Virus record (IMG/VR): IMGVR_UViG_3300022555_000027
Location: 32,270 to 96,269 of that record
Strand: one strand, 5' to 3'
Source of the DNA: a virus
DNA: 64,000 nucleotides
Shown here: positions 932-63,822 of the stretch, in pieces
Numbering within the stretch: position 1 is the stretch's first letter
Layout: every line of letters begins with the position of its first letter
Translations under genes and position numbers: made by a program
Notes under the pieces: generated by a model
What the model saw: the letters and a program-made list of their open reading frames with translations, nothing else
Database searches by the model: none
Told to the model about the DNA's origin: nothing

Positions 932-1972
932 ATGAAAGAGCGCGATGTCCATAACGTGCTTCGGGCCTTGAACATCCAGGCTCAAACACGGGTCGGGGCA
1001 AGTTGGGTGAATGCCCCTTGCCCCTTTGCGCCGTGGCGACACAAGCACGGGACTGATAGCAACCCCTCCTTCGGAGTCGTGTTCAACGACAACAAGATGT
1101 CACGCGGAAACTGCTTTTCCTGTCACTGGAAGGGTACTCTTGCCGATCTCGTGACCGAGCTTGAAAGCCTTCGGGGGGTCACATACCCGGAAGCCCTTCA
1201 CAAGCTGGTCGAAGACGAGATGCTGGGGATTTCGCTGCCGGAATGGGGGGACCACATTCATGACGATGAGCCCCTCCCGGAACCGTACCCGGACGAGCTA
1301 TTCGTCAACGCCTGGGACAACGCCTGGGACGTGCCGGCGGGCAGGGAATACCTGATCAATGGCCGTCCCATCGGACTTCACGAAGAGGCTGTCCGCAGCC
1401 TGGACCTTCGCTACGATCCCGACGAAAACCGCATCGTGTTTCAGGTTCGGGGGAGGGGAGGGGAGTTGTACGGGTTCTCAGGTCGGTCAATCTTTCCGAG
1501 GGCTCAGCCGAAGGTAAGAGACTACGTGGGCCTGCCAAAAAAGCATCTTATCCTTGGGTGCCATCGTTGGCAGCAAGGCAAGCCAGTGATAATGGTTGAA
1601 GGCTTGTTCGCCTATGCCCACCTTGTGTCCATTGGCACCGAACAGTTCGCCAACGTCGGGGCGGCTCTAGGCTCGGTGTTGACTGAGGAGAAGGCATCTA
1701 TACTTAGGATGTTCTTTCACCGCGTCCTTCTTTTGTTTGACCCAGATGAACCGGGGTATGCTGGCATTTGGGAGCCGACGAGGGACGGCAAGCGTGACAT
1801 GAAGCACGGGGCGGTCGGAAAGCTGCTCGGCCATGTCCCTGTCTCCGTCCCCCGCTACCCAGAAGGGTGCGATGACGTTGACAAGCTGCTGATCGACGAA
1901 GTTGAGGCTATGCTGGAAACGGACGACCTCATTCCACGGAAACCGGTTTCAAATCGCTTCCGGCGCACCTAG
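932..1972 (+). CDS. DNA primase (Zn-binding + TOPRIM)
   Basis: N-terminal CPF..H...CFSC zinc motif; RIVF...GFSGR; TOPRIM motifs MVEG and DPDEPG. Confidence 0.85.
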   Translation: MKERDVHNVLRALNIQAQTRVGASWVNAPCPFAPWRHKHGTDSNPSFGVVFNDNKMSRGNCFSCHWKGTLADLVTELESLRGVTYPEALHKLVEDEMLGISLPEWGDHIHDDEPLPEPYPDELFVNAWDNAWDVPAGREYLINGRPIGLHEEAVRSLDLRYDPDENRIVFQVRGRGGELYGFSGRSIFPRAQPKVRDYVGLPKKHLILGCHRWQQGKPVIMVEGLFAYAHLVSIGTEQFANVGAALGSVLTEEKASILRMFFHRVLLLFDPDEPGYAGIWEPTRDGKRDMKHGAVGKLLGHVPVSVPRYPEGCDDVDKLLIDEVEAMLETDDLIPRKPVSNRFRRT

Positions 1973-2363
1973 TTTTTGGACACCACCACTTGTAACTCTC
2001 AATGAGGATACATACATCGTGATCAGTCAAGAAGACGCGAAAATCTTGCATGAGCAACTGAAAACAAGCGGCGGCATCCGAATGCCAACGCCAACCGGGG
2101 ACCTCTTCCTAGTTGACGCCCGAGTATTTCAGAAGGCTGGCCTGCTGATCGCATCCTCAAACGGGGGTTGTTTCCTCTGGGATTACGACCGCCCTCTCAA
2201 TGCGTTTCGTCTACTGAGTGCAAAGTTCCCGCTCGGCATCGCCGAGACTGTATCCAACATCGCCAACGCTCTTGGCGCCCTGGAACAATCCTTGGAACAA
2301 TCGCTCGTAGAGCCACCCCTTTTGGAATACAAGGACCCACCCGATGGCTCAGGAACTCCGTAA
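1902..2363 (+). CDS. Hypothetical protein (start uncertain)
   Basis: ORF filling the primase-SSB gap. Confidence 0.5.
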   Translation: MRLCWKRTTSFHGNRFQIASGAPSFWTPPLVTLNEDTYIVISQEDAKILHEQLKTSGGIRMPTPTGDLFLVDARVFQKAGLLIASSNGGCFLWDYDRPLNAFRLLSAKFPLGIAETVSNIANALGALEQSLEQSLVEPPLLEYKDPPDGSGTP

Positions 2364-3381
2364 CCGCTCCTTCGGGGGCGCCGCGCGTCCCCAAGCTCAG
2401 ACACAGGCCGCACCGAAGGTTGACGACCTGTCTTGGACCGCTTCCGGCGACACCGCTCGCCAGCAGTCCGCTCAAGAGGCCGAAGCCGCCGCTGCCCGGC
2501 GTGCCCAAGCCTACCAGCCCCGGCGTTTCCGCTTGGGTGTTGGCCAGCAAGCCGACGTTATCGTCCTCGACTACAGCATCGTGCGTGTACCTGGGACTGA
2601 ACTCACCTTGCAGACGCAAGGCATCCCCTCCTATCACGAACATGACCTGACCTGGGAGCCGGCCTTTGCGCGCAATCGCACGGGCAGCAACTCCAAGCAG
2701 GACATCTTCGAGGCTTGCCCAAAGCTGCAAGAAACCTGCCCGATTTGCCGTTTCCTTGGCAAAGAAAGCGGCTTCATCATGTTGGTTTCCGTTCTGGACG
2801 CCCGTGCGATCACCAGCCAGAAGACTGGTATCACGACCCCGTTCCGCCGGAACATCCTGGCCGTCAAGAACGAGCAGCAAGCCGTCATCCATCGTATCTT
2901 CGACCGTGCCGGCGGCAACCCCCGTGGCGTTCACCTCCTGATGACCCGTGATGGTCAACGGGAAGCGGCCATCGGTAAGCCCGAGTACGTTGACACCCTG
3001 ACCGAGCAGCAGCTTCTGGAATACTTCAGCCACCCGGCCGAGCTTGCCGCCGATGGCAAGGTGCGGGTCGAGGCCAACGGTATGCTCCAGCCCTACCTGT
3101 ACGGCTCTTTCTTGCGCCGCCCGACCGCTGCTGACATTCACCGGAAGTACCCCTTCCTGCCCGCCGTGGCCGGTAGTGTGACTGCCAACGAACGCGGTAG
3201 CTACGAGGCCCCACACAACCCCGTGGGTGGCTTCAACCACTCGGCAGGCTTCCAGGGTGCTTCACAAGTTGCCGCTGCCCAGCAGGCTGCTACGGGCACC
3301 GGTGGCGGCTTCGCGGGTCGCGCTGCCAATGCTAAACCGCCGGCACAGCCTGACCTGGACGACGAAATTCCTTTTAACTAA
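2344..3381 (+). CDS. Single-stranded DNA-binding protein (gp32-like)
   Basis: HEH...C...CPIC zinc motif, Gly/Ala-rich linker, acidic tail DLDDEIPF; replication context. Confidence 0.75.
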   Translation: MAQELRNRSFGGAARPQAQTQAAPKVDDLSWTASGDTARQQSAQEAEAAAARRAQAYQPRRFRLGVGQQADVIVLDYSIVRVPGTELTLQTQGIPSYHEHDLTWEPAFARNRTGSNSKQDIFEACPKLQETCPICRFLGKESGFIMLVSVLDARAITSQKTGITTPFRRNILAVKNEQQAVIHRIFDRAGGNPRGVHLLMTRDGQREAAIGKPEYVDTLTEQQLLEYFSHPAELAADGKVRVEANGMLQPYLYGSFLRRPTAADIHRKYPFLPAVAGSVTANERGSYEAPHNPVGGFNHSAGFQGASQVAAAQQAATGTGGGFAGRAANAKPPAQPDLDDEIPFN

Positions 3382-3392
3382 GGGGACACGCC

Positions 3393-3794
3393 ATGACCAC
3401 CAGCGAAAGCTGGCGTGTTGTCCCCCGCTTGCCAGAGTATGAGGCGAGCAGCTTCGGAAGGGTTATGCGGACCCCCTATAGAGCGGAGATGCCTCACGGC
3501 GGATACCGCACTTATGGGGGTCAACCCCGGTACGGAGATTTAGAGGACGGCCGCTACCACATCATTTTCAAAGGCCACTGCTATAAGGTTCATCGACTGG
3601 TTTGCGAAGCCTTCAACGGCCCGAAGCCTTTCGATGGAGCGGTAGTGATGCGCCTTGACGAAGATGAGACCAATAACCGGCCGGAGAATTTAGCTTGGGG
3701 CACACAGAAGGAAAACCTGAATGCCCCTGGTTTCATCGCTTACTGCAAGGGTCGGACTGGCGAAAATAATCCTCGCACAAAAGGGTGTCGTTAG
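3393..3794 (+). CDS. NUMOD4/HNH-type homing endonuclease
   Basis: W....YEASSFGRV (NUMOD4); VHRLVCEAF...NNRPENLAWGT..EN; the usual first His appears replaced (VMRLD). Confidence 0.8.
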   Translation: MTTSESWRVVPRLPEYEASSFGRVMRTPYRAEMPHGGYRTYGGQPRYGDLEDGRYHIIFKGHCYKVHRLVCEAFNGPKPFDGAVVMRLDEDETNNRPENLAWGTQKENLNAPGFIAYCKGRTGENNPRTKGCR

Positions 3795-3820
3795 TTTGAA
3801 ACCGGTTTCAGGGGGCTATC

Positions 3821-5712: not shown

Positions 5713-6829
5713 GATCCGCCAGCGCACCGCACCCACAGAACCAGGACCCCTGGTCCTGCCCGATAGCCTGAAAAATCTCAAGGATGCCCTCGCCAAGCGT
5801 TGCGGTGATGGTGTCTTCGTGATGGCCGGCAACCTTCCACCCCGTAAGCACATTCCGACCGGCATTTTCGTTGCCGACATGGCGACCCTTGGCGGCATCC
5901 CGCGTGGCCTGATTACTCAGGTGCTAGGCATGCCCGCTGCTGGCAAAACCCTGCTCTCCATGCGGGCGGCAGCATCGGCACAGCGCATGTTCCCCGACAT
6001 GTATGTTGCCTGCGTTGAGCCTGAAGGCACTTGGGACACGGAGTGGGCCGCTTGTCACGGTGTTGACAACAGCCGCCTGATCCTCGTCCGCCCGCCTGAT
6101 GGCGAAGCCGGTGTGGATGCCACGGACGAGTTGCTGCGCTCCCGTGACGTGTCCCTGGTCATCCTTGATAGCTTGCCTGCCTTGGTTCCGAAAAAGGAAA
6201 TCGAACGCTCGGCTGGCAACGACAGTATGGGTGAGCAAGCCCGTCTGATGGGCCGGTTTATCGTCAAGGCGGTCAACGCCTGCAACGAAGGTCGCCGTGC
6301 GGGTTTCCTGCCCACCCTGCTGATGATCAATCAGTACCGCATGAAGGTCGGCTTGGTGTTCGGCGACCCCCGGTCAATCCCTGGTGGCAAGGCCAAGGAC
6401 TACGCCATTTCCCTGTCCCTTGAATTGAAAAAGTCCAAGGAAGTCATGGGTAAAGACAGCCAGGGCCGTGAGGTTGCTGATCACAACGATCACAGCATCG
6501 AAGTCAAGAAAACCAAAATCGGTGGCTCCATCACGGCTGGGGACTTCACCCTTTGCCGCAACCGCGATGGCAAGTTTGCAGCCGGTTTCATTGACGAAGG
6601 TGAGACCGTCAAGGGCTTCGCAAAGGACGCGGGCTTCCTGGGCGGCTCGGCCGGCAAGTACACGGTGGACGGTGCCATTGACCCGTCAACCGGTGAAGTG
6701 CTGATCTTCCGCACTCACCAGGACATCATCGACTGGTGGTATGCCAACCCGGTGGCGTTCGAGACCATGAAGACCGAATTGATCCGTCTCCAGCGGATCA
6801 AGTGCGGTTACACCAACCAATGGCTCTAA
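5705..6829 (+). CDS. recA: RecA/UvsX-like recombinase
   Basis: GGIPRG, Walker A GMPAAGKT, Walker B VILDS, QARLM, INQYR, FGDP..PGG. Confidence 0.9.
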   Translation: MAEIRQRTAPTEPGPLVLPDSLKNLKDALAKRCGDGVFVMAGNLPPRKHIPTGIFVADMATLGGIPRGLITQVLGMPAAGKTLLSMRAAASAQRMFPDMYVACVEPEGTWDTEWAACHGVDNSRLILVRPPDGEAGVDATDELLRSRDVSLVILDSLPALVPKKEIERSAGNDSMGEQARLMGRFIVKAVNACNEGRRAGFLPTLLMINQYRMKVGLVFGDPRSIPGGKAKDYAISLSLELKKSKEVMGKDSQGREVADHNDHSIEVKKTKIGGSITAGDFTLCRNRDGKFAAGFIDEGETVKGFAKDAGFLGGSAGKYTVDGAIDPSTGEVLIFRTHQDIIDWWYANPVAFETMKTELIRLQRIKCGYTNQWL

Positions 6830-8082: not shown

Positions 8083-8676
8083 ATGTCACGCGGGAATATG
8101 TGCAAGCTCGGGATCACGCTGCCGGATGGAGTTGTAATTATGGGCATCGACCCGTCCTTAACGGCCACTGGCCTCGCTTTACTCAAGGGCAGTGATCTTG
8201 TCACCATCACTGCGTCGCCCCCTATGCCGACCAAGACCTGTCCCCGGGGGGACTTTTGCCGCCTCGCGTGGTTTAAGGAGCGGATAGGGGCAGTGCTTCG
8301 CACAGGCAACCCCCTGGTGGTCGCAATTGAGGGCTATGCCTACGGGGCCAAGTCCCAGGCACACTCGCTTGGTGAGCTTGGTGGGGTTATCCGCGTATTG
8401 CTCTTCGAGAGTGTTATCCCCAACGCCGTTGTCGTTCCGCCGAACGTACTGAAGAAGTTTGCAACGGGCACCGGCAACGCAGATAAGGGTGCCGTAAGCA
8501 AGGGGCTGTTCAAACGATGGGGAGTTGACGTTGAAAACAACAACGAGGCCGACGCATCCGGTCTGGCCCTTTTAGGGGCTGCCCTTCATTTCCCAGACGT
8601 TTTCTCATTGAAATCCGAAGTCCATGAGGCTATCTCTAGGGCATGTGAACGCTTGCCAGTCAAGTCACCGGCCTGA
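8083..8676 (+). CDS. ruvC: RuvC-like Holliday junction resolvase
   Basis: MGIDPSLTATG, IEGY, LKKFATG.G.ADK, NEADA. Confidence 0.85.
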   Translation: MSRGNMCKLGITLPDGVVIMGIDPSLTATGLALLKGSDLVTITASPPMPTKTCPRGDFCRLAWFKERIGAVLRTGNPLVVAIEGYAYGAKSQAHSLGELGGVIRVLLFESVIPNAVVVPPNVLKKFATGTGNADKGAVSKGLFKRWGVDVENNNEADASGLALLGAALHFPDVFSLKSEVHEAISRACERLPVKSPA

Positions 8677-8714
8677 AACCGGTTTCAACTCGGGGCAACA
8701 AGGAGCAACCTATC

Positions 8715-10202
8715 ATGGCCGCTAAGAAACAGCCCGATCAGGACTTGATCGGCAAATACGTCCAGTTTACCGGGTACGTCGATCTGACGATGGACCCGTT
8801 GCTGGAAGTTGGTGAACGCCTCCGCATCTTCGGTTTTTACGAACCGAATGATCCCTCTCAACCAATGGGCTTCAAAGCGCACTCTGACCGCTTCGGACCC
8901 GACGAAAAAGGCGTCATCGAGCGCATTAGCGACCCAGTGTTCCCCAAGGAGTTCGTTCTCTCCAGCGATCAAACCCCGTTCGCGAGTGAGGAAGAGTTTC
9001 CAATTCAGATTGAGGGTGAGGATAAGGTCAAAAAGGCTGCCAAGCCCAAGGCTGAGAAGGTCAAAGCCGCTACCAAGCCCAAGGCTGGAAAGGCCAAAGC
9101 TGCCGAGCCGGTCGTCACCCCGGAGCCGGAACTTGCACTTGAAACCCCTGTGGCGGCTCCTGAGCCCGCAGTTACGGTCGAACCTGTTGCGGCCGAAGTA
9201 CCGGTTGCAGAACCGGAGGCCATCCCGGTACAGGAGATCAGTGAAGAGCCCACAGTTGACGCGGAAGTGGAAACCGTGAATACTCCCACCAATGTGATCG
9301 ACAACGAAAGTGAGCGGATGACAAACGGAAACAGCGAACCGAAAAGCACTTGGACCCTGGCCGACGTTGTCCTTGGTGAAGAGGCGGACATCCCGGTTGA
9401 AGTCCCGGAGCCCCCCGATACCACCGATGCGGTCAAGGATGAAGGCGGCGTTTACGTCCAGCCGATTGACGCAGTTCGTGCCGCACTGGAAAGCGGCGAT
9501 ATGCTCAACGCGGCGATCAAGACGCACCAAGACATCGAGTTGCAGTTCTACACGCTCGGCGGTATCCTGTACGAAATCGAGCGGACTGGCTCCTACAAGG
9601 AAGAGGATAAGTACAAGGGGGCGGAAGGCTTCGTCAAATTCTGTGACGAGGCAGTCGGTTGCAGCTACCGTAGGGCAATGTACCTGATCAAACTCTACAA
9701 GCGCATTCAGGTGCTCGGACTTGACTACACCAAGCTGGCTAAGGTCGGCTGGAGCAAGGCGACCAAGTTCCTCGACCTCAATGACGAGTTGCTCAAGCTG
9801 AACTATGATGAGTTGTGCGAGATCGGCGCCCAGCTTTCCCGCCCCAACTTGGTCGTTGAGATCGGAAGGATTAAGGCGGGCGGTGTCACAGAAGACGAAC
9901 AGGTTGCCAAGTTCAAGGTGGCCTTTACCGTCACGGGTGACGAGGCCGCACTGTTCAAGGGTGCCCTTGAGACCGCAGCGCCCAAGGCTGGGGTTGACGC
10001 CCTTGTTGAGAACTTCACTCGCGAGCAGATCGTCATGGTGTTCAAATACATCGTCAACGACTGGGCAAGCCTTGCCAATAGCGGCGTCGTCCGCCCGCTG
10101 GCTGATCAAATCCGTGAGATTGAACTGATCCACGACGTTCGCATCACGGCGGTCCCGATGTCCGAAGTTGAGGACGAAGATCAGGAAACCGTCAACGCAT
10201 GA
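8715..10202 (+). CDS. Hypothetical protein with Glu/Pro/Ala-rich linker and probable C-terminal helical DNA-binding domain
   Basis: AAGGAG RBS; LGGILYEI...F..FC...G.SYRRA.YLI..Y...L.KVGWSKA resembles DUF3102-type HTH domains. Confidence 0.65.
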   Translation: MAAKKQPDQDLIGKYVQFTGYVDLTMDPLLEVGERLRIFGFYEPNDPSQPMGFKAHSDRFGPDEKGVIERISDPVFPKEFVLSSDQTPFASEEEFPIQIEGEDKVKKAAKPKAEKVKAATKPKAGKAKAAEPVVTPEPELALETPVAAPEPAVTVEPVAAEVPVAEPEAIPVQEISEEPTVDAEVETVNTPTNVIDNESERMTNGNSEPKSTWTLADVVLGEEADIPVEVPEPPDTTDAVKDEGGVYVQPIDAVRAALESGDMLNAAIKTHQDIELQFYTLGGILYEIERTGSYKEEDKYKGAEGFVKFCDEAVGCSYRRAMYLIKLYKRIQVLGLDYTKLAKVGWSKATKFLDLNDELLKLNYDELCEIGAQLSRPNLVVEIGRIKAGGVTEDEQVAKFKVAFTVTGDEAALFKGALETAAPKAGVDALVENFTREQIVMVFKYIVNDWASLANSGVVRPLADQIREIELIHDVRITAVPMSEVEDEDQETVNA

Positions 10203-10524: not shown

Positions 10525-13500
10525 ATGAAGAAAAATAACATCCGGGACTTCGAGCCTGGAATGGGGAGAGCGGTGGCCGAGCGCACCATCCTCCGCAAGC
10601 GTCTCGACAACGATGAACTCACCGGGATGGGTGTGCAAGTCGTGATCAACCCCAAAGACCCCGACGCGCCAGCCTGGATTTCTGCTGCCGAAGCGGCTGA
10701 TCTCCTGGTCAAGACCGATTATGAAGCCGGTTTCAAAGGCCGGAAGCCGAAGACCCGGTGGGAGACCTGGGAAGAGGTTGCCAGGAGGGTGTCGTGGGGC
10801 AACACTATCCTCACTCAAGAGGGTGAAGACGACTACCTCAAGATGTACGAAGCTATGCTTGCCGGCACGGTGGTCATGAGTGGCCGCCATCTGCAACACG
10901 GGGACAGCCGCCAGCCAGGCCGACCGCAGGAAGTCTTTACTAATTGCAGCGTTTCTGCGACTACTTTCTTACTCTTTCGCCTTTTGCTTTCCGGCAGTGG
11001 TGTTGGGCGGGACTACAGCAGCCACATGATCGCCGTCAATTTTGACAATGCTCCACACCTCCGTTGCATCCTCAGCGAAGATCACCCTGATTATACCCCA
11101 GGCGCGGCCTATGATGGTCGGCGCGAAGCCATCCATAAATATGGGTCGCCGGGCACCAACCCCGACGTAATCTGGTTCCGCGTCCCTGACAGCCGTGAGG
11201 GCTGGGCGCAGGCAATCGAGACGTGGGAAGTGCTGGCCTTCACGAAGGCCGCCAAGAACAAGACCCTGATCCTCGACTTCTCAGACGTGCGCGAACGCAA
11301 CAAGCCCATCCGGGGAATGCAGTACCGCCCGTCCTCTGGCCCCATTCCCCTGATGAACGCCATAATCAAGGCCGCCAGCCTCAAGGGGGCCGGGATTACG
11401 CCCTGGAAACAGGCGATGCTGATCGACCATTTGGTCGCCGAGTGCGTCCTCGTTGGAGGCGCCCGTCGCTCGGCGCGTATGGCCACGATGTATTGGCGTG
11501 ACCCGGCCATCTTCGAGTTCATCCAATGCAAGCGGCCCATAGAATACATGGGTCTGACCGCCACTGAGGTTGCCCTTTACCGTGATCAGTTGGCTATCCT
11601 CGGTAAGCCGGCGCCAGGAACCTTCCTGTGGAGCGCCAACAACAGCGTCCTGTTTGACCAGGAAGCGTGGGGGCTGTTAGCCTTGCGGAAGGGCGAGAAG
11701 CTCTATCACAGTGCCAGCGCCCGGCACGCGCGCAAGGTATTCGACCTGATCATCTCGTGCTCCTACGGCGACGGAACCGGCGAGCCGGGTATCATCAACG
11801 TGGACAAGCTGGTGGAGAACTGGGCTGGGTGGGAGACCATCGCCAACGGTAGCTTTGCCGGGAACGACACCTACCCCATCGTCGGGGAAACCCTTCACCT
11901 GATGGCCGATCTTGCCCGCCGGGTGCGCCTCAGCCCCTACAGCATGATCGTGAACCCATGCCAGCCCGCTTGGGCGCCCGTGCTTACCCCTTATGGTATA
12001 AGCACCATGGGGGCAATCAAGATCGGGGACAAGGTTTGGTCCAAGGATGGGTGGGTGACGGTCGTGAATAAGCAGGCGACCGGCGTGAAACCTGTTTACT
12101 GGTATCGGACCAACGCGGGTGCTTTCGTCGGCACAGAAAATCACCGCGTCGTTTCTGGGGGCATCAAGATCGAGGCGGGGGAGGCGGATAGCATTGACGT
12201 GCTGGCCGGGCCTCTGGGTTCGGTTGAGCCCTTGGCCCAGTTTGTCATGGATGGTCTCATGATAGGAGACGGGACTGCACACCGGACAAGCCATGATAAG
12301 GTGTATCTCACCATCGGAGCGGGGGACCAGGACTACTTCGCTTCTGAGGTTGGGCACCTGATCATTGGTGACCATTCTGTCAAGAAAGGCAAAGCGTTCA
12401 AGGTCGAGACGACTATCGACCACGATGAGCTTCCCCACCTGCCAGAGCGTGTTATCCCGGATCGCTTTCTGTACGGAACGCCGTCTGAGGTGGCATCGTT
12501 CCTTCGTGGCCTCTTTTCAGCCAATGGATCAATCTGCGGAAGCCGGGTGACGCTCAAGACAACTTCTGCTGGTCTTGCGGCTCAGGTTCAGTGGATGCTC
12601 TCGTCTATTGGGATCGTTTCATACCGGACCACCAACAAGTCGTCGTCCGTTAAATGGGAGAATGGGGAGTACACCAGCCGCCAGTCCTACGACATCAACG
12701 TCAACGCCCATAATGCTCTGGTGTTCGCTGAGAAGATTGGCTTCATCCAGGGGTACAAAAACGAAAAGCTCGCGGCTCTTTCTCGCTGTGATGGGCCTCG
12801 CGGTCATCGGGTTAAGACCACGTTCGACATCGTTGAGCGCGATCTTATCGGTGAGGAAGAGGTATTTGACATCACGGTTGACGGACCATCGCACACCTAT
12901 TGGTCCGGCGGGCACGATGTGAGCAACTGTGGCGAGGTTACCCTTTCAGTCCTGGGTGGTTTCTGTGTGCTATGTGATGTCATCCCGTACCACGCAGAAA
13001 GTCTTGATGAGGCCGAGGAAGCATTCCGTGTCGCCACGCGGGCACTGATCCGGGTCAACACCATGGACAGCGTTTACAACAACGAAGTGAGGCGCACCAA
13101 CCGCATTGGTGTCGGGATGACCGGCATCTTTGAGTTCGCTGCCAAGTTTTTCAGGTGCGGCTTCATTGAGCTTATCAACCCTGATTTCACTAACCCGCAC
13201 TGCCGTTCGGCCCAGTTCTGGATCACCCTGAGCAGGTTCGCTCGGGCTGTTGAAGAAGAGGCCGAGAGCTATTCCAAGGTGCTCGGGATGGCTATTCCGC
13301 ACACCAACCGTACTATCAAGCCCAGTGGCACGATCAGCAAACTGTGGGGCCTTTCCGAAGGTGCCCATCTTCCTTGTCAGCGTCGGTATCTTCGCTGGGT
13401 TCAGTTCCGCTCTGATGACCCCTTGGTGGCCGAATACAAGGCCAAGGGCTACCCTGCGAAGGAACTGGTCACGTACACCGGCACGACAGTGATCGGCTTC

Positions 13501-13938
13501 CCAACAACCCCTGTGCTGACCACGCTGTTGCCCGACGACATGATCGTCACGGCGTCCGAGGCTACTCCGGCGCAACAGTATGCTTGGCTGCGTCTTCTTG
13601 AAAACCACTGGCTACGGGGTGGTGATCAACATGGAAACCAGTTTCAAACAGATCACTCGAACCAAATCAGCTACTCGCTAAAATACAACCCAGCCATCGT
13701 CTCCGCCGAAGACCTCAAGGAAATGCTGCTGGAGTACCAACCGGGCGTCAAAGCGTGCTCGGTCATGCCCCTCACCGAAGACCGATCGGCCTATGAATAT
13801 CTCCCCGAAACCCCTGTTACCAAATCGGAGTACGAGGCCATCTCCCGTCAGATCAGCGCCAAGCTGGCAGAGGATGTTGACCGTGTCCATTTAGATTGTG
13901 CCAGTGGTGCTTGCCCCATCGACTTCAACAAGAGCTAG
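10525..13938 (+). CDS. nrdJ: Class II (B12-dependent) ribonucleotide reductase, intein-containing
   Basis: TNC, GSGVG, DSREGW, GGARRSA, EPG, NP|CGE thiyl motif split by an intein, IKPSGTIS, C-terminal CASGACP. Confidence 0.9.
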   Translation: MKKNNIRDFEPGMGRAVAERTILRKRLDNDELTGMGVQVVINPKDPDAPAWISAAEAADLLVKTDYEAGFKGRKPKTRWETWEEVARRVSWGNTILTQEGEDDYLKMYEAMLAGTVVMSGRHLQHGDSRQPGRPQEVFTNCSVSATTFLLFRLLLSGSGVGRDYSSHMIAVNFDNAPHLRCILSEDHPDYTPGAAYDGRREAIHKYGSPGTNPDVIWFRVPDSREGWAQAIETWEVLAFTKAAKNKTLILDFSDVRERNKPIRGMQYRPSSGPIPLMNAIIKAASLKGAGITPWKQAMLIDHLVAECVLVGGARRSARMATMYWRDPAIFEFIQCKRPIEYMGLTATEVALYRDQLAILGKPAPGTFLWSANNSVLFDQEAWGLLALRKGEKLYHSASARHARKVFDLIISCSYGDGTGEPGIINVDKLVENWAGWETIANGSFAGNDTYPIVGETLHLMADLARRVRLSPYSMIVNPCQPAWAPVLTPYGISTMGAIKIGDKVWSKDGWVTVVNKQATGVKPVYWYRTNAGAFVGTENHRVVSGGIKIEAGEADSIDVLAGPLGSVEPLAQFVMDGLMIGDGTAHRTSHDKVYLTIGAGDQDYFASEVGHLIIGDHSVKKGKAFKVETTIDHDELPHLPERVIPDRFLYGTPSEVASFLRGLFSANGSICGSRVTLKTTSAGLAAQVQWMLSSIGIVSYRTTNKSSSVKWENGEYTSRQSYDINVNAHNALVFAEKIGFIQGYKNEKLAALSRCDGPRGHRVKTTFDIVERDLIGEEEVFDITVDGPSHTYWSGGHDVSNCGEVTLSVLGGFCVLCDVIPYHAESLDEAEEAFRVATRALIRVNTMDSVYNNEVRRTNRIGVGMTGIFEFAAKFFRCGFIELINPDFTNPHCRSAQFWITLSRFARAVEEEAESYSKVLGMAIPHTNRTIKPSGTISKLWGLSEGAHLPCQRRYLRWVQFRSDDPLVAEYKAKGYPAKELVTYTGTTVIGFPTTPVLTTLLPDDMIVTASEATPAQQYAWLRLLENHWLRGGDQHGNQFQTDHSNQISYSLKYNPAIVSAEDLKEMLLEYQPGVKACSVMPLTEDRSAYEYLPETPVTKSEYEAISRQISAKLAEDVDRVHLDCASGACPIDFNKS
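11959..12927 (+). mobile_element. LAGLIDADG intein (323 aa) in the RNR
   Basis: Starts CQPAWAP, block B GTENHRV, GLMIGDG and FLRGLFSANG motifs, ends DVSN|C; removal restores NPCGE. Confidence 0.9.
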
Positions 13939-14245: not shown

Positions 14246-15034
14246 ATGAGCAGACGAGCAGACCGTTATCAGTCGGAACGTGGTCGCGGCCCCAACAGGC
14301 GCGGCGCACAGCAATCCCCCGGCAAGGGGGCTGAAGAGCCGACCGAGCCCCAAGCGAAGATCGCCCCCTTCAAGCCACGGGGGGAAAACCAGATCGAATA
14401 CGTCCGGTCCCTCTACGAATACCGTCTCACCTTCGCCCTTGGCCCAGCGGGTACAGGCAAATCCTACGTCGCAGCCAGCATCGCGGCGAAGCTCCTGGCA
14501 GATAAATCAGTGAAAAGCCTGATCCTCTGCCGTCCCGCCGTCGAAGCGGGGGAAGAGCACCTCGGCTTTCTGCCCGGCGATCTCAGTGAAAAGATGGCCC
14601 CCTGGACTGCACCCATCATTGACATCCTGTATCAGCGTCTCGGCAAACAGCGGGTCGATGGTATGGTGCGTGCCGGTGTTATCAAGACCATCCCATTCGC
14701 TTACATGCGCGGGTGGACACTTCAAGACGCCTTCGTGCTCCTTGACGAAGCCCAGAACACCACCCCGAGCCAGATGAAGCTCTTCCTGACCCGCATCGGT
14801 GAGGGGGCAACGGTGTCCGTCAACGGTGACACGAAGCAATCTGATATCCACTCCGAAGACAACGGCCTCGCAACGGCCATCTGGTTGGCCACTCGCTTCA
14901 ACATCCCCTGCGGCGTCATCAAGTTCACCCCTGAAGACTGCGTTCGTTCGGAGATGTGCCGGGCGTGGAGCATCGCCTTCGAGGAAGATGAAGACCATAT
15001 CGACAACTCACTCCCGTTCCTTCGGGCAAGTTGA
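14246..15034 (+). CDS. phoH: PhoH-family ATPase
   Basis: GPAGTGKS, RPAVEAGE.LGFLPG, YMRGWT, LDEAQN, LTRIG, GD..QSD. Confidence 0.93.
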   Translation: MSRRADRYQSERGRGPNRRGAQQSPGKGAEEPTEPQAKIAPFKPRGENQIEYVRSLYEYRLTFALGPAGTGKSYVAASIAAKLLADKSVKSLILCRPAVEAGEEHLGFLPGDLSEKMAPWTAPIIDILYQRLGKQRVDGMVRAGVIKTIPFAYMRGWTLQDAFVLLDEAQNTTPSQMKLFLTRIGEGATVSVNGDTKQSDIHSEDNGLATAIWLATRFNIPCGVIKFTPEDCVRSEMCRAWSIAFEEDEDHIDNSLPFLRAS

Positions 15035-15132
15035 AACCAGTTTCACTGAAACGACGGTTTCCGCTTGAAAAAGTCGGGATGGTGGTTACATAATGTGGGA
15101 ACCGGTTACCCTCGTTACAAGGATCACCATCC

Positions 15133-16854: not shown

Positions 16855-16855
16855 C

Positions 16856-20639: not shown

Positions 20640-20641
20640 TC

Positions 20642-21037: not shown

Positions 21038-21133
21038 AAGTGCTTGTTAATTCCGTTGGAGGCCTCATATAGGTGCTACATCCAGCATAAACCGTTGCCG
21101 GAATGAAACCGGTTGCAAAATCAGGAGAGCACC

Positions 21134-22946: not shown

Positions 22947-23250
22947 TGAGATAGCTCCTTAGTTTGAGACTGTGTACCTACCATGTTCGCATTAGACTAA
23001 ATGCGTGAGGCTCCCGTCAAGTCCAACATTCAAGCCTCGCAATCTTTTTTGAAACCGGTTTCACCGGATCACTGGGGCTCCCGCCGTATGAGCCAACCGG
23101 CAGTCCCGCATAGTTGACAGGGCCACCTTGAAGGGGCCAGCCCACGCGGTCAGGGCCTTTTCCGCTTTGCGCCGGGCACTCATTGCCGAGCGGGCGAAGA
23201 TGATACAGGTCCCGTGGGACGTATCAACAAGAAAGGGAGCAGTAACCTGA

Positions 23251-23964: not shown

Positions 23965-23980
23965 TGTCACCTCCGTTGAG

Positions 23981-28048: not shown

Positions 28049-28540
28049 GGCGCCTCCTGTCTGGTGAAACCGGTTTCACTTGGATCACCAAAGCGGGGGG
28101 CCGAAGCCCCCCAATAGGTCACGCCGTAGCCCGTTTGCCCTGGATGCGGGCCGTTCCCTTAGCAAAGCTTGCAACCAACCTCATCTGGCCAGCAGCCGGC
28201 CAGCTATCCCAAACACAACTCTTGTACCGGAAGTCGTCGGTAGCAAGAAACATCGCGATCTTGTTGGAAAGGGCTTCAAGGGCCTTGGTCAAAGGCTTGT
28301 CTTCAATGCCCTCCTCACACATCTGGTAGTGGAGGCATTGGATGCTCTTGAGCGCCTGATAATGATCGATCAGTGCCCAGGCCATCGGCCGGTAGTGAAA
28401 GATCGGGACCTCAAAGTCCTTGACCCCGTAACGCCCGTTGACCGCCATTGCATTGAGCCGGTACAGCTTCCGACCCAGGTCATCCAGGTTATCACTGGTG
28501 ACGGTGCTCACACCCCCGAAGGTGGTGGCCAGTTCCTTAT

Positions 28541-36190: not shown

Positions 36191-36359
36191 GTAGCCACCG
36201 GGTAGGCAGCTACGATGCAACCGGTTTCAAATCATGCGCTACCGTAGACCGCACCGGTGAACACTTGGATGGTATCTGGGGAAGTTCCCCACGAGGACGG
36301 CGGGAGGGCTTGACTGTATCCGCGTATGGGGTTATGAGAAGGCAACGAAGGAGGTTTGG

Positions 36360-53628: not shown

Positions 53629-53884
53629 CTGAAACCAGTTTCAAAACGAGGGATGCAATGAAATCGTTGAAGCACTCGGAAGTCCAGGCGTTCTCAAATT
53701 GGGTAGGCCGCGTTGGTACGATCCTGCCGAACGCCGGATACCACGATGTCCTCCGCGTCGAAGTCAACGGCCAGCTCGTTGTTTACAAGAAACGCAAGGG
53801 CAGCAGCCTCGAAACCTGCCAACGCGGGTCGCGGCTTGTCAATGAATGGCGGTCGTGTGAACAACAGATCGCAGCTTGACGGGG

Positions 53885-54898: not shown

Positions 54899-55242
54899 AG
54901 GTGAATGATCTCGCAAAGTTCGCTCCCCCTAAAGGCACGAAAGGGCGCCTGCTCCTCAGACTTCTATTAATTGGGGATCAGGTTGGGCCAGTTGAGGCAT
55001 TCTATCGTCTCAACCTTCCCACCCTTGCTGCTAGGGTGAGCGAGCTTCGCAAACTGGGCTGGCCTGTACGAACTATCGAAATGCCCCATCCAACCCTTGC
55101 AAATGAAGATGTAACCTACTATCTTTTAGATCAGCACTTCCGATCGTGGCTGTCTGCCCACCCGGGCGCTTCTCCGAAGGATTATCCCGACAGTGATGGC
55201 CGGGGTAAGTTTACAGATAGGGGCGAAGTCACCCAGGTCTGA
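54889..55242 (+). CDS. Winged-HTH protein
   Basis: EA......LAARVSELRKLGWPV...YYL. Confidence 0.7.
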   Translation: MGLKVNDLAKFAPPKGTKGRLLLRLLLIGDQVGPVEAFYRLNLPTLAARVSELRKLGWPVRTIEMPHPTLANEDVTYYLLDQHFRSWLSAHPGASPKDYPDSDGRGKFTDRGEVTQV

Positions 55243-55293
55243 AACCAGTTGCAAAATCCTCAATGACCCACCTCTGGCCCATTGGGGATTGGT

Positions 55294-57054: not shown

Positions 57055-58060
57055 GACGTTGGCCCTCCTACAGCCGTGGGGGGACCAGCACTCTTTTGAT
57101 GCTCTTCTGACCGAACTTGATTGCATCGGCATGCTGGCGCGTCTCGATACCCTGATCCGTCAGAAGGGTGGGGAAGTCCCGGATGAGGGGGAGATTGAGG
57201 AAGCTGCCAACACCCGGGATGAGCACGGTTCACCGTGGCTCCGGGGCTACGAGGCCGAACTAACTGCCATCTTCCTGCAAGACTACTGGGACCGGATGCA
57301 GACCTCCTTGGCGAAGTTTCGCTTCGAGATGAACTACAGTCGTCCAGATGTCACGCGCGCAATCAACGAATTGGATGCTGCCATTGATGGCATGAGGGTC
57401 TTAGACCAGGACGTGAAGAAGGAGACCAAGGCCCGGATAGCTGAGATCATGAAGGCAGGCTTCGACAAGGGGAGCAAGGGGCAGAACCTTGATAGCAGCT
57501 ACGTCGCGTCACATAGCCGCCTCATGGTTCAGGACGGCCTTTGGGAGAGCCTGGGGTTCTACCTCCGTGAGTTCTTTTACCGCTTTGTCGCCCCGAAGGT
57601 CCGCAAGGAGCTTGAGGTAGTGTTCGACGAAAAAATTGTCCAGAAGGTAACAGATACAAGAAAGGTGCTTGAACTTCTAGCCAATCCATCCTATGTTACA
57701 GCTTACATGGCGATCATGGCCAACGTGGCGGCCCAGCGCAGCTACAATTACGGCTTCCTGACAGCCATCCAGGCACGCGGTGTCCGGGTATTCCGGCTCG
57801 TCGCGGTCATCGACAACCGAACGAGCGACATCTGTCGCGCACTCAACGGCACAGAGTTTTTCGTCTCCGATGCCCTTCGGTTGATCGAAAGAGCTTCAAA
57901 CCCTCAAATCCCAACAGCGGCAACGACCGTAACACCCTGGCTCCGGGCTGAAACGCTTGAACCCATGTCGGTTCAGCAGCTTGTAGCCGCAGGGGTAATG
58001 GTCCCGCCGTTTCACGCAGATTGCCGCACCCACCTCGAAGAGGTTAAGGCGTCAATTTGA
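57008..58060 (+). CDS. Head morphogenesis protein (Mu gpF/SPP1 gp7-like)
   Basis: AVIDNRTSDICRALNG...PPFHADCR; start may be GTG 57029. Confidence 0.85.
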   Translation: MMQRGTTVETALLSLETLALLQPWGDQHSFDALLTELDCIGMLARLDTLIRQKGGEVPDEGEIEEAANTRDEHGSPWLRGYEAELTAIFLQDYWDRMQTSLAKFRFEMNYSRPDVTRAINELDAAIDGMRVLDQDVKKETKARIAEIMKAGFDKGSKGQNLDSSYVASHSRLMVQDGLWESLGFYLREFFYRFVAPKVRKELEVVFDEKIVQKVTDTRKVLELLANPSYVTAYMAIMANVAAQRSYNYGFLTAIQARGVRVFRLVAVIDNRTSDICRALNGTEFFVSDALRLIERASNPQIPTAATTVTPWLRAETLEPMSVQQLVAAGVMVPPFHADCRTHLEEVKASI

Positions 58061-58082
58061 AACTGGTTTCAGGGACGGGGCT

Positions 58083-58665: not shown

Positions 58666-60294
58666 ATGCGACCTATCCCCCGGACCTTTAAGGCAGTTGC
58701 AGTCGCTCAGACTGACCCGGACCCGCGTTTCATTTCGCTGGTCAAGGTCGGGGCGAACCAGACGCCGTTCCGTGCCCTCAAGTCTGCCGTGAAGGATGAA
58801 CTCGCCATGATCGTCTTGAAGGGGGAGGGGGCTTCCGTTGTGGGCTTTGCGTTCCCGGCCGCCAGCTTCACCACCGCGACAGTGAAGGCTTTCATGGATG
58901 ACGGTGGTTACTCCGACTATGCGATTATCGCTGGTGCGGATTACATCCGTGTGAAAGCAGCCGATGCTGTTGGTGGCAATGACCAGCCCGGTGAAGCCCC
59001 TGCGGGCTCCCGTGAGATTGCCTTGAGCGGTGGCGTGGTCGTGACCGTCATCACCAACAAAGCTCCCAACCCGGACATCGCGGGCAACACGCCCTCCATG
59101 ATCACGTCCGCAACACCCGTTCGTACCAAGGAAGATGAGCCCGCAGAGCGTGTGAAACGTGACTTCACGGCTGCCGAACGTGCAACCGACGCCAGTTCAG
59201 GCGCGGCTATGCCTGATGGCTCATTCCCCATCGAAAACGGTTCCGATCTCGAAAATGCTGTCCGGGCGATTGGCCGTGCCAAAAACCCGGCGGCGGCAAA
59301 GCGTCACATTATCTTGCGGGCACGGTCCCTCGGCCTGACCGCTAAACTCCCGGAGGACTGGAAAGTGAGCAAAAAGGACGAAGAGCAGGCCGCCGCAGCG
59401 AAAGCCGCTGGCAACAAGCTGCGTAACAAGCCCGCCGATGCTGACGCGGAGGCGGCTGAAATGGGTGTGCCGAATAGCGGTGGCGAAGCGGGTGCTGTTA
59501 CCCAATCGTCCAGCGACAACCCGGAAGACGGTACGGGCGAAGGCTTGCCGTCTGGTGCAAGTGTCCCCCACCCGGCCACGACTGGTAACGACGGAACGGG
59601 TGAGGGCATCGGTACTCGGGGCGGCCCGTCCGTGATTGCGACCCCCGGTTCAACCGGCCCGCAGGATGCTACCGGCGCTGCCATTCCTTCTCGGGGTGCC
59701 CCCTCGAAGATTGGCAAAAAGTTCGACGATTGGTCGGAAAGGATGGCCAAGCCAACTGCCTTCTCCGATGCGCTGGAAAGCAAAGCGGATGGTGCTCACC
59801 CGGACCTCCACGGTCTTACCCGCTCCCTTCATGATGTAACCAAGGCGTGTGTTGCCAAGGGTGATTATGAGGGCGTGAAGAAGGCAGCCGGCGAGTACGC
59901 CGATCTCGTGACCAAGATGGGTCAGGTGTTTGACGGTGCCCGTTCCGCCAAGCGTGCCAAGTCCGACCTCGACGCCTTCCAGAGCAAGGTTTTCAACGAC
60001 CAGTCGAACGACACCATTGTCGTTCTCAAGGCCGTTTCGGACCTGAGCGCCAAACTCGATACCGCTCTGCAACTGGTTTCAAGTCAGAAAGCCGACACCG
60101 ACGCCAAAATCCAGGAAGTCAAGGCGGCGGCTGAAGCTGTGAACGTCATCGTCCAGCGTGGCGCACAGGCTGGTGACGAGGCGGTTTCCGACAAAAAGGA
60201 AGATGCGCCTGCTTCTGCTTCGGACTTCGTTCGTGACCTCCGTATCCGTTCTCAGTTTGGGCAACCCCCGGCAACCCTCTCCCGCAAAAAGTAA
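58666..60294 (+). CDS. Scaffold-like head assembly protein
   Basis: FISLV..GAN at N-terminus, AMPDGSFPI...DL.NA..A.GRA module, disordered Gly/Pro region, coiled-coil C-terminus; precedes the capsid gene. Confidence 0.7.
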   Translation: MRPIPRTFKAVAVAQTDPDPRFISLVKVGANQTPFRALKSAVKDELAMIVLKGEGASVVGFAFPAASFTTATVKAFMDDGGYSDYAIIAGADYIRVKAADAVGGNDQPGEAPAGSREIALSGGVVVTVITNKAPNPDIAGNTPSMITSATPVRTKEDEPAERVKRDFTAAERATDASSGAAMPDGSFPIENGSDLENAVRAIGRAKNPAAAKRHIILRARSLGLTAKLPEDWKVSKKDEEQAAAAKAAGNKLRNKPADADAEAAEMGVPNSGGEAGAVTQSSSDNPEDGTGEGLPSGASVPHPATTGNDGTGEGIGTRGGPSVIATPGSTGPQDATGAAIPSRGAPSKIGKKFDDWSERMAKPTAFSDALESKADGAHPDLHGLTRSLHDVTKACVAKGDYEGVKKAAGEYADLVTKMGQVFDGARSAKRAKSDLDAFQSKVFNDQSNDTIVVLKAVSDLSAKLDTALQLVSSQKADTDAKIQEVKAAAEAVNVIVQRGAQAGDEAVSDKKEDAPASASDFVRDLRIRSQFGQPPATLSRKK

Positions 60295-61313: not shown

Positions 61314-61384
61314 TCTGACCACCGGCACCACACATAGTGTAGCAGTCAGAAATGGCTGCTACACTACAGCCAGAGGATAGAGTG

Positions 61385-62674: not shown

Positions 62675-62727
62675 ACACAACACTGGGGCCTTAAATCTTA
62701 ACCCCGGTAACTAGAAGGAAGTGTGTC

Positions 62728-62976
62728 ATGGCCGACGAAGCCGCTCCTCGCTACAAAGCGACCCTAGTCCGGGGGCAGGTCTACTACCTCGGAAACACCA
62801 TCTTTACCGTCGGAACCCCGAAGGAAGTCGATCAGGTGACGAAAGAGACGCTTGAACGGGATGCAATCGACATGATCAAGGTCGAGCGCAACCTCAAGCC
62901 AATCCAGAAGTTCACCTTTGGAGTCTTCGATCCCTCCGCTCCGGTAGTCCCGGCGCCCAAGGTTCGGAACCGGTAA
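62728..62976 (+). CDS. Small YqbF-like head-associated protein
   Basis: Y.A.L..G..Y......F..G....V......L pattern and position. Confidence 0.55.
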   Translation: MADEAAPRYKATLVRGQVYYLGNTIFTVGTPKEVDQVTKETLERDAIDMIKVERNLKPIQKFTFGVFDPSAPVVPAPKVRNR

Positions 62977-63020
62977 CACGCCCTGTGCGAGGCCCTCGGG
63001 CCAGCAGTAGGGACGTGTGG

Positions 63021-63053
63021 CGGGAGAAGGGATGCCCCTCCTTCTCCCGTTTT
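63021..63053 (+). terminator. Terminator after the capsid genes
   Basis: CGGGAGAAGG-loop-CCTTCTCCCG-TTTT. Confidence 0.8.
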
Positions 63054-63072
63054 ACTCTAAGGAGATCACGCT

Positions 63073-63822
63073 ATGTCTCAGCTTCCGTTCTGCCAGATGT
63101 CTGATGTGAAGCAATGGCTCCCGGTCCGGGACGGCGTGAGCACCTATGATGCCAAGATCATGTCCTTGATGCTGATCGCATCCAAGCAGATTGAAAGCTA
63201 TTGCCGTCGTGACTTTACTTACCAGTCGAATTTCGTTGAAGCCTTTGACACCAAGCAGACCATCCACCGGGTTCCCGACTTCGCCAGTAGCTGCATCCCT
63301 GCAACCGGTTTCATGTATGTCGGTCGGCCCCAGTCACTGTACCTGACCCTGACACCCATAGACATGACGCAACCAATCATCGTGAACTTTGACCCTTATT
63401 TCGTCTTTGGCACCCAGACCGTCCTAAATGGCGTTCCGGGAGCCAACGGTATTTGCATCCCGGACTATCAGATTGAGCCAGGGAAGGCCAACAAGTGGCC
63501 CAAGGTCATCCTCATGCGTGGCTTGCCCAAGACCAACAGGGCGCTCCAAGTGACCTACAGCGGCGGCTACCAGCCAGACCCGGCCAACACCTACCTCATG
63601 GTGGACAGCGACATCACGATGGCTACGGCCCTCCAGACGCTGTTCCTATGGACCCGCAACAACCCGGACAACATCGGTATCAGCCAAGACCGCACGATGG
63701 GCTCCCCAGGTAACAAGGGTTTCCACGCAGGTACAGCCGACTTCGAGAAAAATTCCGGGGTGTGCAATGAGGCCGCCATGCTTCTCAAGGACTACGCCAG
63801 GATTGCGAAGGGACGCGGCTAA
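63073..63822 (+). CDS. Head-tail adaptor/connector
   Basis: DVK.WL...D..I..L...AS..IE.YC.R.F; VTY.GGY; LL..Y. Confidence 0.8.
   Translation: MSQLPFCQMSDVKQWLPVRDGVSTYDAKIMSLMLIASKQIESYCRRDFTYQSNFVEAFDTKQTIHRVPDFASSCIPATGFMYVGRPQSLYLTLTPIDMTQPIIVNFDPYFVFGTQTVLNGVPGANGICIPDYQIEPGKANKWPKVILMRGLPKTNRALQVTYSGGYQPDPANTYLMVDSDITMATALQTLFLWTRNNPDNIGISQDRTMGSPGNKGFHAGTADFEKNSGVCNEAAMLLKDYARIAKGRG

Follow-up and report, generated by a model that had tools for sequence, protein, structure and literature searches.

The sequence TGMAA-N4-TTKCA, the core of a 14-bp palindrome, recurs at even intervals along the entire genome in a large clade of ~80-110-kb siphophages of Proteobacteria, in which the array is conserved. 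The array was analysed in a stretch of 64,000 nucleotides of viral DNA (hereafter the window), which comprises bases 32270-96269 of the 96,269-bp IMG/VR virus record IMGVR_UViG_3300022555_000027, a record estimated to be 89% complete, and in the cultured and metagenomic relatives of this uncultured phage. The palindromes are very probably docking sites for a protein encoded by the phages themselves. The best explanation of the whole, which we consider probable, is that they dock a symmetric dimer, most likely of the 495-residue product of a conserved core gene located at 8715..10202 on the plus strand of the window, here called p495.

The palindrome array in the window and in related phages

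The pattern TGMAACYRGTTKCA had 22 strict matches in the window, compared to none in 100 dinucleotide-preserving shuffles. Nine further copies carried one mismatch to the pattern (starting at 1938, 6577, 10722, 13633, 22080, 31906, 35393, 46921 and 47503). Over the complete record the number of strict copies was 31, and a reversed-pattern control gave 0. Copies were found in all modules and in both orientations, and the largest gap in the window was 4,736 bp (16368 to 21104) when copies with up to two mismatches were counted. An earlier note on this DNA had reported 22 strict and nine one-mismatch copies spread over every module and both directions with a maximal gap of about 4.7 kb; by pattern search the counts, the coordinates and the gap were all correct, and the distribution was borne out. 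It had also seen no copy inside the inteins or the two-component cassette, and none was present in the LAGLIDADG intein stretches of the ribonucleotide reductase (RNR) and terminase genes or in the histidine-kinase cassette. The longest site-free stretches, 49252-53630 and 16368-21104, match likely insertions, namely the histidine-kinase cassette and the LAGLIDADG intein of the terminase gene, which fits the palindromes being an old feature of the phage backbone. Isolated half-sites were not enriched. A single double change of compensatory type was observed at site positions 3 and 12 (at 16777 of the record); judged by eye and without formal statistics, it was near the expectation for independent changes and was discarded as a sign of compensation.

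The closest cultured relatives were identified through the portal protein (55294-57054), which has 44% identity to that of Rhizobium phage vB_RleS_L338C and is more distant from those of Aeromonas phage HJ05, Agrobacterium phage JP1 and the Rhodobacter RcF phages. A megablast search of GenBank phages with 20 kb of the window gave no match, and a portal-based scan of IMG/VR returned only a fragment of the same phage. All palindromes of the form 6-N(0-4)-6 were then counted without bias in six genomes, and each genome was found to have one dominant dispersed palindrome. With up to one mismatch, the half-site TGAAAC was present in 36 copies in this record, TGCAAC in 54 copies in L338C, 54 in Rhizobium phage RHph_I4 and 24 in HJ05, TGCAAA in 37 copies in JP1, and TGCAAT in 48 copies in Rhodobacter phage RcTiptonus. 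The totals of 24-68 copies per genome compare with 0.1-0.2 expected. L338C and I4 had in addition 12 and 7 perfect copies, respectively, of a form with a 1-bp spacer, TGCAAC-N1-GTTGCA, which is mostly intragenic, fills gaps in the array of 2-bp-spaced sites and is absent from the other four phages (examples in the L338C record are at 8269, 16755, 26500 and 27175).

The core TGMAA-N4-TTKCA was present in nine cultured relatives, at 9-68 copies each, with inner bases specific to the lineage. Beyond the closest phages, 30 copies were counted in Pseudomonas phage SM1 (in the form TGCAAR-CG-YTTGCA), 30 in RHph_Y1_11, 14 in Vibrio phage SIO-2 and 9 in RcZahn. Bacillus phage BMBtp14, which is related through its portal, had 1 copy (control 1) and no p495; neither the palindrome array nor the protein is present in this phage. 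Among 58 IMG/VR loci fetched via a p495 homologue, about 45 had two or more copies of the core, compared to no more than 0.2 expected, and a few had other half-sites (TGAACC, TGACAT or TGCAGA). The palindrome-bearing cultured phages infect Rhizobium, Agrobacterium, Rhodobacter, Aeromonas, Vibrio and Pseudomonas. The inner bases are independent of host taxonomy: phages of Rhizobium and Aeromonas share TGCAAC, while Rhizobium and Agrobacterium phages differ. A host factor is therefore unlikely as the reader of the sites.

Bacterial DNA does not share this enrichment. In 101 genomes of one bacterial phylum (~370 Mb) the strict pattern occurred 30 times, with at most three copies in any genome, compared to 31 copies in the 0.096 Mb of the phage record, a density difference of about 4000-fold. 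Conservation in related phages and a frequency above that in host DNA had been named in the earlier note as checks on the array; the first was found, and as to the second the array was denser than in these 101 bacterial genomes. In three metagenome-assembled genomes (MAGs) the loose pattern was clustered on a few small contigs. A scan with a p495 profile of one genome for each of 185,579 prokaryotic species gave four hits, all on MAG contigs of 3-5 kb, and no integrated prophage relative was found in the same set. Homologues of p495 or palindrome clusters were seen on small contigs binned into Thioalkalivibrio, Sulfuricella, Rhizobacter and Campbellbacteria MAGs, and these contigs are probably mis-binned phage DNA. 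In JP1, 164 of 165 genes are on the same strand and the annotation contains neither an integrase nor a repressor. The clade appears to be lytic, and this speaks against a role of the sites in prophage silencing of the stoperator kind or as targets of a lysogeny repressor.

Placement, spacing and level of action of the palindromes

Genes were called with a simple codon-score caller (128 genes, 91% coding), so that start positions may be off. Of 36 copies with up to one arm mismatch in the record, 26 lay outside coding sequence, whereas a random 14-mer would be intragenic in 89% of cases (binomial p 1e-17). The same intergenic enrichment was seen in all six analysed genomes, with p from 4e-6 to 5e-19. 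Overall about two thirds of the copies lie in short intergenic gaps, the intragenic share being 30-50%, and the palindrome is found at only about one in five gene junctions. The earlier note had pictured a dispersed array with about ten copies inside coding sequences. Ten were indeed found in the window by the open reading frame (ORF) calls, and intragenic copies across the six genomes were uniform along gene length; what the note underplayed was the preference for junctions.

In the following coordinates, mismatches are to the perfect 14-mer unless stated. The intragenic copies in the window are at 1938..1951 (one mismatch; 3' end of the primase gene, relative position 0.97), 6577..6590 (two mismatches; RecA), 10722..10735 and 13633..13646 (one and two mismatches; both in RNR), 16368..16381 (in a gene for a ParB_N-methyltransferase (MTase) fusion, relative position 0.64), 22080..22093 (two mismatches; a 370-aa minus-strand gene), 24779..24792 (a 668-aa minus-strand gene), 33599..33612 (perfect; a 362-aa minus-strand ORF), 60068..60081 (a 542-aa gene) and 63300..63313 (a 249-aa gene). 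Intragenic copies are mostly in one reading frame, giving (L/V)Q-x-(V/I/F)A. The encoded peptide follows the DNA motif of each phage (LQTFA in JP1, LQSIA in RcTiptonus, ETGF in this phage), and this shift of the peptide with the DNA motif shows selection on the nucleic acid and not on the protein.

On one strand or the other, nine copies contribute their TGA as the stop codon of the gene upstream. This reuse is unique to this phage among the set, its half-site starting with TGA and those of the relatives with TGC. One of the nine is at 26075 of the record and the other eight are in the window. The perfect site at 8674..8687 takes in the RuvC stop codon and lies 27 nt ahead of the p495 start. 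The site at 15032..15045 includes the stop codon of a PhoH-like gene, and the sites at 23050..23063 (perfect; a junction of minus-strand genes) and 32558..32571 (also a junction) overlap minus-strand stop codons. At two more junctions, 39823..39836 and 42241..42254, the site overlaps a stop codon and lies 11 and 14 nt, respectively, upstream of a minus-strand start. The remaining two, 55240..55253 and 58058..58071, are 40 nt ahead of the portal start and 11 nt ahead of a protease-like gene.

Fourteen copies end 10-27 nt ahead of a start codon, with a Shine-Dalgarno sequence in between. Junction copies that do not reuse a stop codon include a perfect site at 3797..3810, 10 nt ahead of the helicase start, and a site at 21104..21117, 16 nt ahead of a plus-strand start. 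Upstream of minus-strand starts lie 28065..28078 (perfect, 16 nt), 30356..30369 (15 nt) and, at a junction, 44437..44450 (20 nt). Two junction sites closely follow stop codons: 49252..49265, 7 nt past a plus-strand stop, and 53630..53643, 1 nt past the ThyX stop and 14 nt ahead of the next start. The sites at 31906..31919 and 46921..46934 (one mismatch each) and 47503..47516 (one mismatch from the degenerate pattern) are intergenic. Three palindromes, at 34573..34586 (perfect), 35393..35406 (one mismatch, centre GG) and 36216..36229, lie in a stretch of 2 kb without a called gene (34329-36359). This stretch is directly upstream of a small ParA-like ATPase gene (36360-37007), 130 nt from the last site, and of a 69-aa ORF.

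The spacing of the sites was compared to a junction-aware null model that keeps the numbers of junction and intragenic copies in each of the six genomes. In this phage the coefficient of variation (CV) of the spacing was 0.69, versus 0.98 for the null (p 0.008), in line with the regular intervals proposed in the earlier note. The other five relatives analysed had p <= 0.004. Over the six genomes the CV was 0.43-0.71 versus ~0.98 (p <= 0.008) and close pairs were avoided. Under a uniform null, SM1 had a CV of 0.55 (p 0.001) and SIO-2 one of 0.58 (p 0.03). The 1-bp-spacer copies of L338C, found mostly in long genes, shrink its maximal gap from 7.1 to 3.9 kb. Copies are placed at least cost, in short gaps or, in long genes, mostly in one reading frame. 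With copies forced even into long genes, the regular tiling suggests that it is important to cover the molecule as a whole, and points to organisation or self-marking of the chromosome.

Orthologous positions are occupied in phages with only 30-45% protein identity (portal ~44%). The junction of RuvC and p495 has a copy in all six analysed phages and likewise in RcZahn, RHph_Y1_11 and, with an inferred gene start, probably SM1. The junction ahead of the protease-like gene has one in four of five (this phage, L338C, I4 and JP1). The copy at the 3' end of the primase gene (0.97 here) recurs in L338C and I4 (0.94), and copies upstream of the helicase gene and after PolA are shared by the same three phages. 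The intragenic copy of the ParB-MTase gene is at relative position 0.64 here and 0.65 in HJ05. The sites are therefore old and have been maintained, while the inner bases of all copies in a genome have shifted together.

The geometry of the sites relative to expression signals differed between phages. About 20 copies in L338C and I4 precede a conserved sigma-70-like promoter cassette, 7-9 bp upstream of its -35 element and often just past an intrinsic terminator; a site in such a terminator-promoter spacer need not be transcribed. In HJ05 the order is terminator-site-promoter or terminator-site-Shine-Dalgarno sequence. In JP1 the site begins 2-12 nt past a -10-like hexamer, at about the transcript start, and in this phage it adjoins a Shine-Dalgarno sequence or a stop codon. 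The distance from site to start codon also varies by phage, being ~65 nt in L338C and I4. The RNA hairpin predicted for the site of this phage has -1.7 kcal/mol and a z-score of -0.03 versus shuffles. No consistent T-run was found in the site flanks, and the sites failed as terminator stem-loops. The site arms are invariant and do not covary. From the variable geometry, the weak RNA hairpin, the invariant arms and the lack of enrichment of half-sites it was concluded that the functional unit is the complete dyad in double-stranded DNA. A promoter element as a general explanation was ruled out by the differences in geometry from phage to phage and by the uniform intragenic copies, and a resemblance to ECF-sigma -35 or sigma-54 elements by the spacing to start codons.

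The promoter cassettes of L338C (for instance at 42307-42400, 61232-61320 and 71933-77400 of its record) comprise ~20 near-identical early promoters following a palindrome. Each consists of TTGMCA, the conserved spacer AAGGAWCGGTTC, which holds a dyad GGAWC-G-GTTCC, and then GTTAGATT; this inner dyad resembles an operator for a second regulator. In the record analysed here, the extended -10-like words CATATAAGG, CATATAGG and ACATGTAGC recur near gene starts (record positions 10560, 32050, 53340 and 22660). They may constitute a promoter signature of this phage itself, and lie at variable positions with respect to the palindrome.

A candidate binder and competing explanations

Candidate binders were sought among the genes that the palindrome-bearing phages have in common. 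Genes shared by the six phages were determined by iterative profile searches, and a deep core was defined as those shared, by tblastn, with at least two of SM1, SIO-2 and RcZahn. The deep core consists of 14 genes: an AAA+ ATPase, DnaB, PolA, primase, helicase, an uncharacterised 121-aa protein, RecA, a Cas4-like exonuclease, RuvC, p495, terminase, portal, protease and capsid. The earlier note had listed the product of 8715-10202 first among several possible binders, and this protein emerges as the best candidate. Of the other candidates, the DUF3489-like, ribbon-helix-helix and small helix-turn-helix (HTH) proteins are not among the genes common to at least four of the six phages, and the ParB-MTase is outside the deep core, its JP1 version being annotated as a ParB-like nuclease without an MTase.

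p495 has an SH3-like N-domain, a KAAKPKA-type Lys/Ala/Pro-rich basic stretch, an acidic disordered linker and a helical C-domain (residues 245-480). Its homologues carry long AAKP/KPAA repeats at either end. In RHph_Y1_11 (31344-32561) and RHph_TM16 the homologues are annotated as 'putative ribonuclease E/G family protein', probably an artefact of the Lys/Ala/Pro/Glu-rich low-complexity tails. Searches of p495 and the other small core proteins against Pfam and PHROGs gave no DNA-binding family, and PF02195, the N-terminal CTPase domain of ParB, had no match in p495 and 14 homologues; in the record ParB_N is found solely on the separate MTase fusion. Structural comparison of the predicted models with VIA-align gave recurrent matches to the DNA-binding domains of the ParB superfamily, which headed the lists for both models. 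For the whole-protein and the domain-only model, respectively, Z was 8.5 (107 residues, rmsd 3.1) and 7.2 with Spo0J (1vz0), 8.3 and 8.2 with ParB-parS (6s6h), 7.3 and 6.7 with the DNA-binding domain of KorB (1r71), and 6.5 and 6.2 with KorB 8qa8. SopB and P1 ParB were in the match lists of both models, and VirB in that of the domain-only model (pLDDT 87). Among the other families listed, Raf1 alone scored comparably and the rest had Z of 5.5 or less. On these models the C-domain of p495 is probably an HTH DNA-binding fold of the ParB/KorB/Noc type.

The C-domain is also predicted to form a symmetric dimer. The homodimer model had an ipSAE of 0.71, compared to 0.00 for the best control, with a contact agreement between runs of at least 93% and a partner pLDDT of at least 80. 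The mark set for a dimer was reached by 20 of 30 solved homodimers and by 1 of 23 single chains (rough counts, with own alignment used). The strongest link of p495 to the palindromes is the site upstream of its gene, the pattern of an autoregulated DNA-binding protein. A site within 200 nt upstream of the p495 ORF was present at 22 of 31 non-redundant metagenomic loci, where 2.8 were expected (p 1e-16), and in about nine of ten cultured phages. On balance, p495 is judged slightly more likely than not to be the docking protein.

Several observations weigh against this assignment. The Z values of 6-8.5 are middling and often reached by helical models by chance, Foldseek against the PDB gave E-values above 0.7 for both p495 models, Pfam finds nothing in the protein, and a profile search of the PDB reached Noc only at E 7-8, which is not significant. 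The most conserved helix of p495, YRKAMYLI, is unchanged between phages whose sites differ in their inner bases, and no covariation of specificity was found. The co-occurrence of p495 and palindrome is confounded by shared ancestry, and the conserved upstream site could equally be described as a site after RuvC. The 1-bp-spaced copies in L338C (12) and I4 (7 perfect) are awkward for a rigid dimer, and because promoter and start-codon geometry varies by phage, the copies cannot all be accounted for by one regulatory mechanism. Another possible binder is the 121-aa protein of the deep core (5347-5712), for which an Atlas search gave viral hypothetical proteins only.

If p495 is the binder, its dimers would dock on every palindrome of the replicating phage chromosome during lytic growth. 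The site ahead of its own gene would then provide feedback, that is autoregulation. Nearby promoters could be modulated in the manner of KorB, through the Lys/Ala/Pro-rich basic tail and the SH3-like N-domain; p495 bound next to a promoter would modulate initiation, and the geometries correspond to the 'proximal' operators of KorB (PMC11790492). Marking or organisation of the phage chromosome, in the way of Noc and ParB, could be a further or an alternative role of the protein. Whether the main output is transcriptional or lies in structure and self-marking is, in our judgement, roughly an even matter. A more far-reaching version is that a protein with only the DNA-binding domain of ParB labels the DNA of a lytic phage as self, with sites and binder co-evolving across a clade that infects Alpha- and Gammaproteobacteria; the chromosome would be organised or protected during recombination-dependent replication, host-DNA degradation or packaging. 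We hold this version possible but rather doubtful. Coating of the genome for compaction, segregation or silencing, as proposed in the earlier note, is conjectural, and segregation is unlikely for the clade since the ParA-like gene is absent from the set that is conserved in relatives.

The main rival to docking of p495 is that enzymes of replication or recombination read the site as a strand-symmetric signal, such as an orientation-free Chi-like, priming or resolvase signal, which would mark the phage genome as self during recombination-dependent replication or host-DNA degradation. A palindrome reads identically on the two strands, and given the even spacing, for which copies are forced into long genes, an enzyme would travel only a limited distance before reaching one. 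The lack of a fixed geometry to promoters or start codons, the apparently lytic nature of the clade, the non-structural deep core consisting mostly of DnaB, PolA, primase, helicase, RecA, Cas4-like exonuclease and RuvC, and the position of the most conserved copy next to the RuvC stop would all suit such a signal. Known Chi-type signals are, however, short and asymmetric, half-sites alone are not enriched, so that the full dyad is the unit, no enzyme with a predicted specificity of 14 bp was found here, and a copy upstream of a ParB-like protein predicted to dimerise is better explained by autoregulation. We consider this rival unlikely. A short hairpin at gene junctions that controls mRNA processing or stability, or translation downstream, is a little harder still to sustain. 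Many copies in this phage and JP1 do lie 10-27 nt ahead of a start codon, directly 5' of the Shine-Dalgarno sequence, the occurrence of both N1 and N2 spacers in L338C could be read as variation in loop length, and A is slightly over-represented at the first base past the site in the direction of transcription. The low stability of the predicted hairpin and the invariant arms speak against it, as do the presence of a copy at only about one fifth of junctions, the 30-50% of copies that are intragenic and uniform along genes, the many L338C and HJ05 copies in the spacer between terminator and promoter, and the start-codon distance, which varies and reaches ~65 nt in L338C and I4.

Three explanations involving other proteins appear very unlikely. 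The generic operator pattern of the LacI/GalR family is TGNAANCGNTTNCA, which the site family fits, and a phage could use operator mimics to recruit or titrate a host repressor such as PtxS. The perfect copy is letter-identical to the published PtxS operator of Pseudomonas (PMC3402500), which bears out the LacI-type resemblance pointed out in the earlier note. Yet the record encodes no LacI-type HTH (PF00356) above the cut-off, the inner bases vary independently of the host, and L338C and I4 lack the central CG, all of which leaves mimicry a very small chance. The chance is about as small for the ParB_N-MTase fusion (15520-16854) having the sites as its targets. Its gene is common to the six closest phages and carries an intragenic copy at a matching relative position here and in HJ05, but tblastn gives no hit for the gene in SM1, SIO-2 and RcZahn, all of which bear the palindrome, the JP1 homologue is annotated as a ParB-like nuclease only, and Pfam finds no HTH domain in the fusion. 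Least probable of all is an array of stoperator-like sites for an immunity repressor that silences a prophage. The copy number and mostly intergenic spread resemble those of Cluster A stoperators (PMC9283540), whereas stoperators are asymmetric and oriented with transcription and the sites here are palindromic; no integrated relative was found in the 185,579 species genomes, and JP1, with 164 of 165 genes on one strand, is annotated without integrase or repressor.

Comparison with known systems, and further observations

By analogy, the nearest mechanistic counterparts are KorB with its OB operators on the IncP plasmid RK2 and Noc with its NBS sites, and the nearest phage phenomenon is the palindrome of Cluster O mycobacteriophages. 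In RK2, a palindromic operator of similar length is likewise spread over the whole replicon, and OB sites lie 4-10 bp upstream of promoters or far from them (PMC11790492). Parallels with the present array are the position of the L338C and I4 palindromes 7-9 bp upstream of the -35 element, the match of the p495 domain to the DNA-binding domain of KorB (Z 6.7-7.3 with 1r71 and 6.2-6.5 with 8qa8) and the site upstream of the candidate binder's own gene. Unlike KorB, p495 is without the N-terminal CTPase domain of ParB by Pfam, so that clamp loading and sliding are not expected, and carries in its place an SH3-like N-domain and Lys/Ala/Pro-rich tails. No partner resembling KorA was identified here, the number of sites is 24-68 per genome, and the replicon is an apparently lytic phage and not a plasmid.

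With Noc/NBS and ParB-parS the array shares a palindrome of 14-16 bp, read there by a ParB-type HTH dimer and here, putatively, by p495, whose predicted fold recurrently matches the DNA-binding domains of Spo0J, ParB-parS and Noc. NBS sites are dispersed along the chromosome and also occur inside genes. p495 differs in having neither a CTPase domain nor a membrane-targeting helix, and its similarity to Noc at the sequence level is not significant (E 7-8). In contrast to ParABS systems, the ParA-like gene (36360-37007) is not conserved in relatives and the sites are dispersed, not clustered. Since the CTPase domain, a defining feature of ParB, is absent, the array is set apart from membership of the ParB family.

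Dispersed operators outside promoters have precedents in the OB sites of KorB, the stoperators of mycobacteriophages and the palindromes of Cluster O. The latter are 17-bp palindromes, TGTTCGG-N3-CCGAACA, and the available text of the 2015 paper calls their function unknown (PMC4351075). As described there, more than 30 invariant dyad copies occur per genome, many intergenic and about one third coding, without a tie to start codons, in phages reported to be without integrase or stable lysogens. Sequence, host phylum and phage lineage are unrelated to those studied here, and that part of the paper names no binder and no shifts of specificity across clades. Cluster A stoperators are similar in being many sites across a phage genome, mostly in short intergenic gaps (PMC9283540). 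They differ in being asymmetric, transcription-oriented sites of a monomeric immunity repressor that function in lysogeny, compared to palindromes in apparently lytic phages. The PtxS operator is identical in its 14-bp sequence to the perfect copies (PMC3402500). PtxS has few operators per bacterial genome, at specific promoters, versus 31 copies in 96 kb here, the inner bases are different in the relatives, and the record encodes no protein of LacI type; the identity is read as convergence on a common TGNAA...TTNCA dyad, or at best as a hint of the host.

No description of the palindromes in this clade came to light in the literature, where searches by phage (L338C, RcTiptonus and SIO-2), by exact 14-mer and by general terms covered few subscription journals. 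If p495 docks on them, a large group of phages would share a genome-wide protein-DNA array that is undescribed in the literature searched. Among its members are isolates on Pseudomonas aeruginosa, Vibrio, Aeromonas, Rhizobium, Agrobacterium and Rhodobacter, and a role would be assigned to a conserved core gene annotated as 'hypothetical' or, in RHph_Y1_11 and RHph_TM16, as 'RNase E/G'. TGMAA-N4-TTKCA at every ~2-3 kb would be a simple signature for spotting the clade in metagenomes. The culturable natural variants TGAAAC, TGCAAC, TGCAAA, TGCAAT and TGCAAR make both the recognition rule and the function directly testable.

A module of five genes at 22701-26077 of the record, encoding an AAA+ ATPase, a 216-aa ORF, DUF1257, DUF2997 and a 112-aa ORF, was present in all six phages. 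Its AAA+ gene was also found in SM1, SIO-2 and RcZahn.

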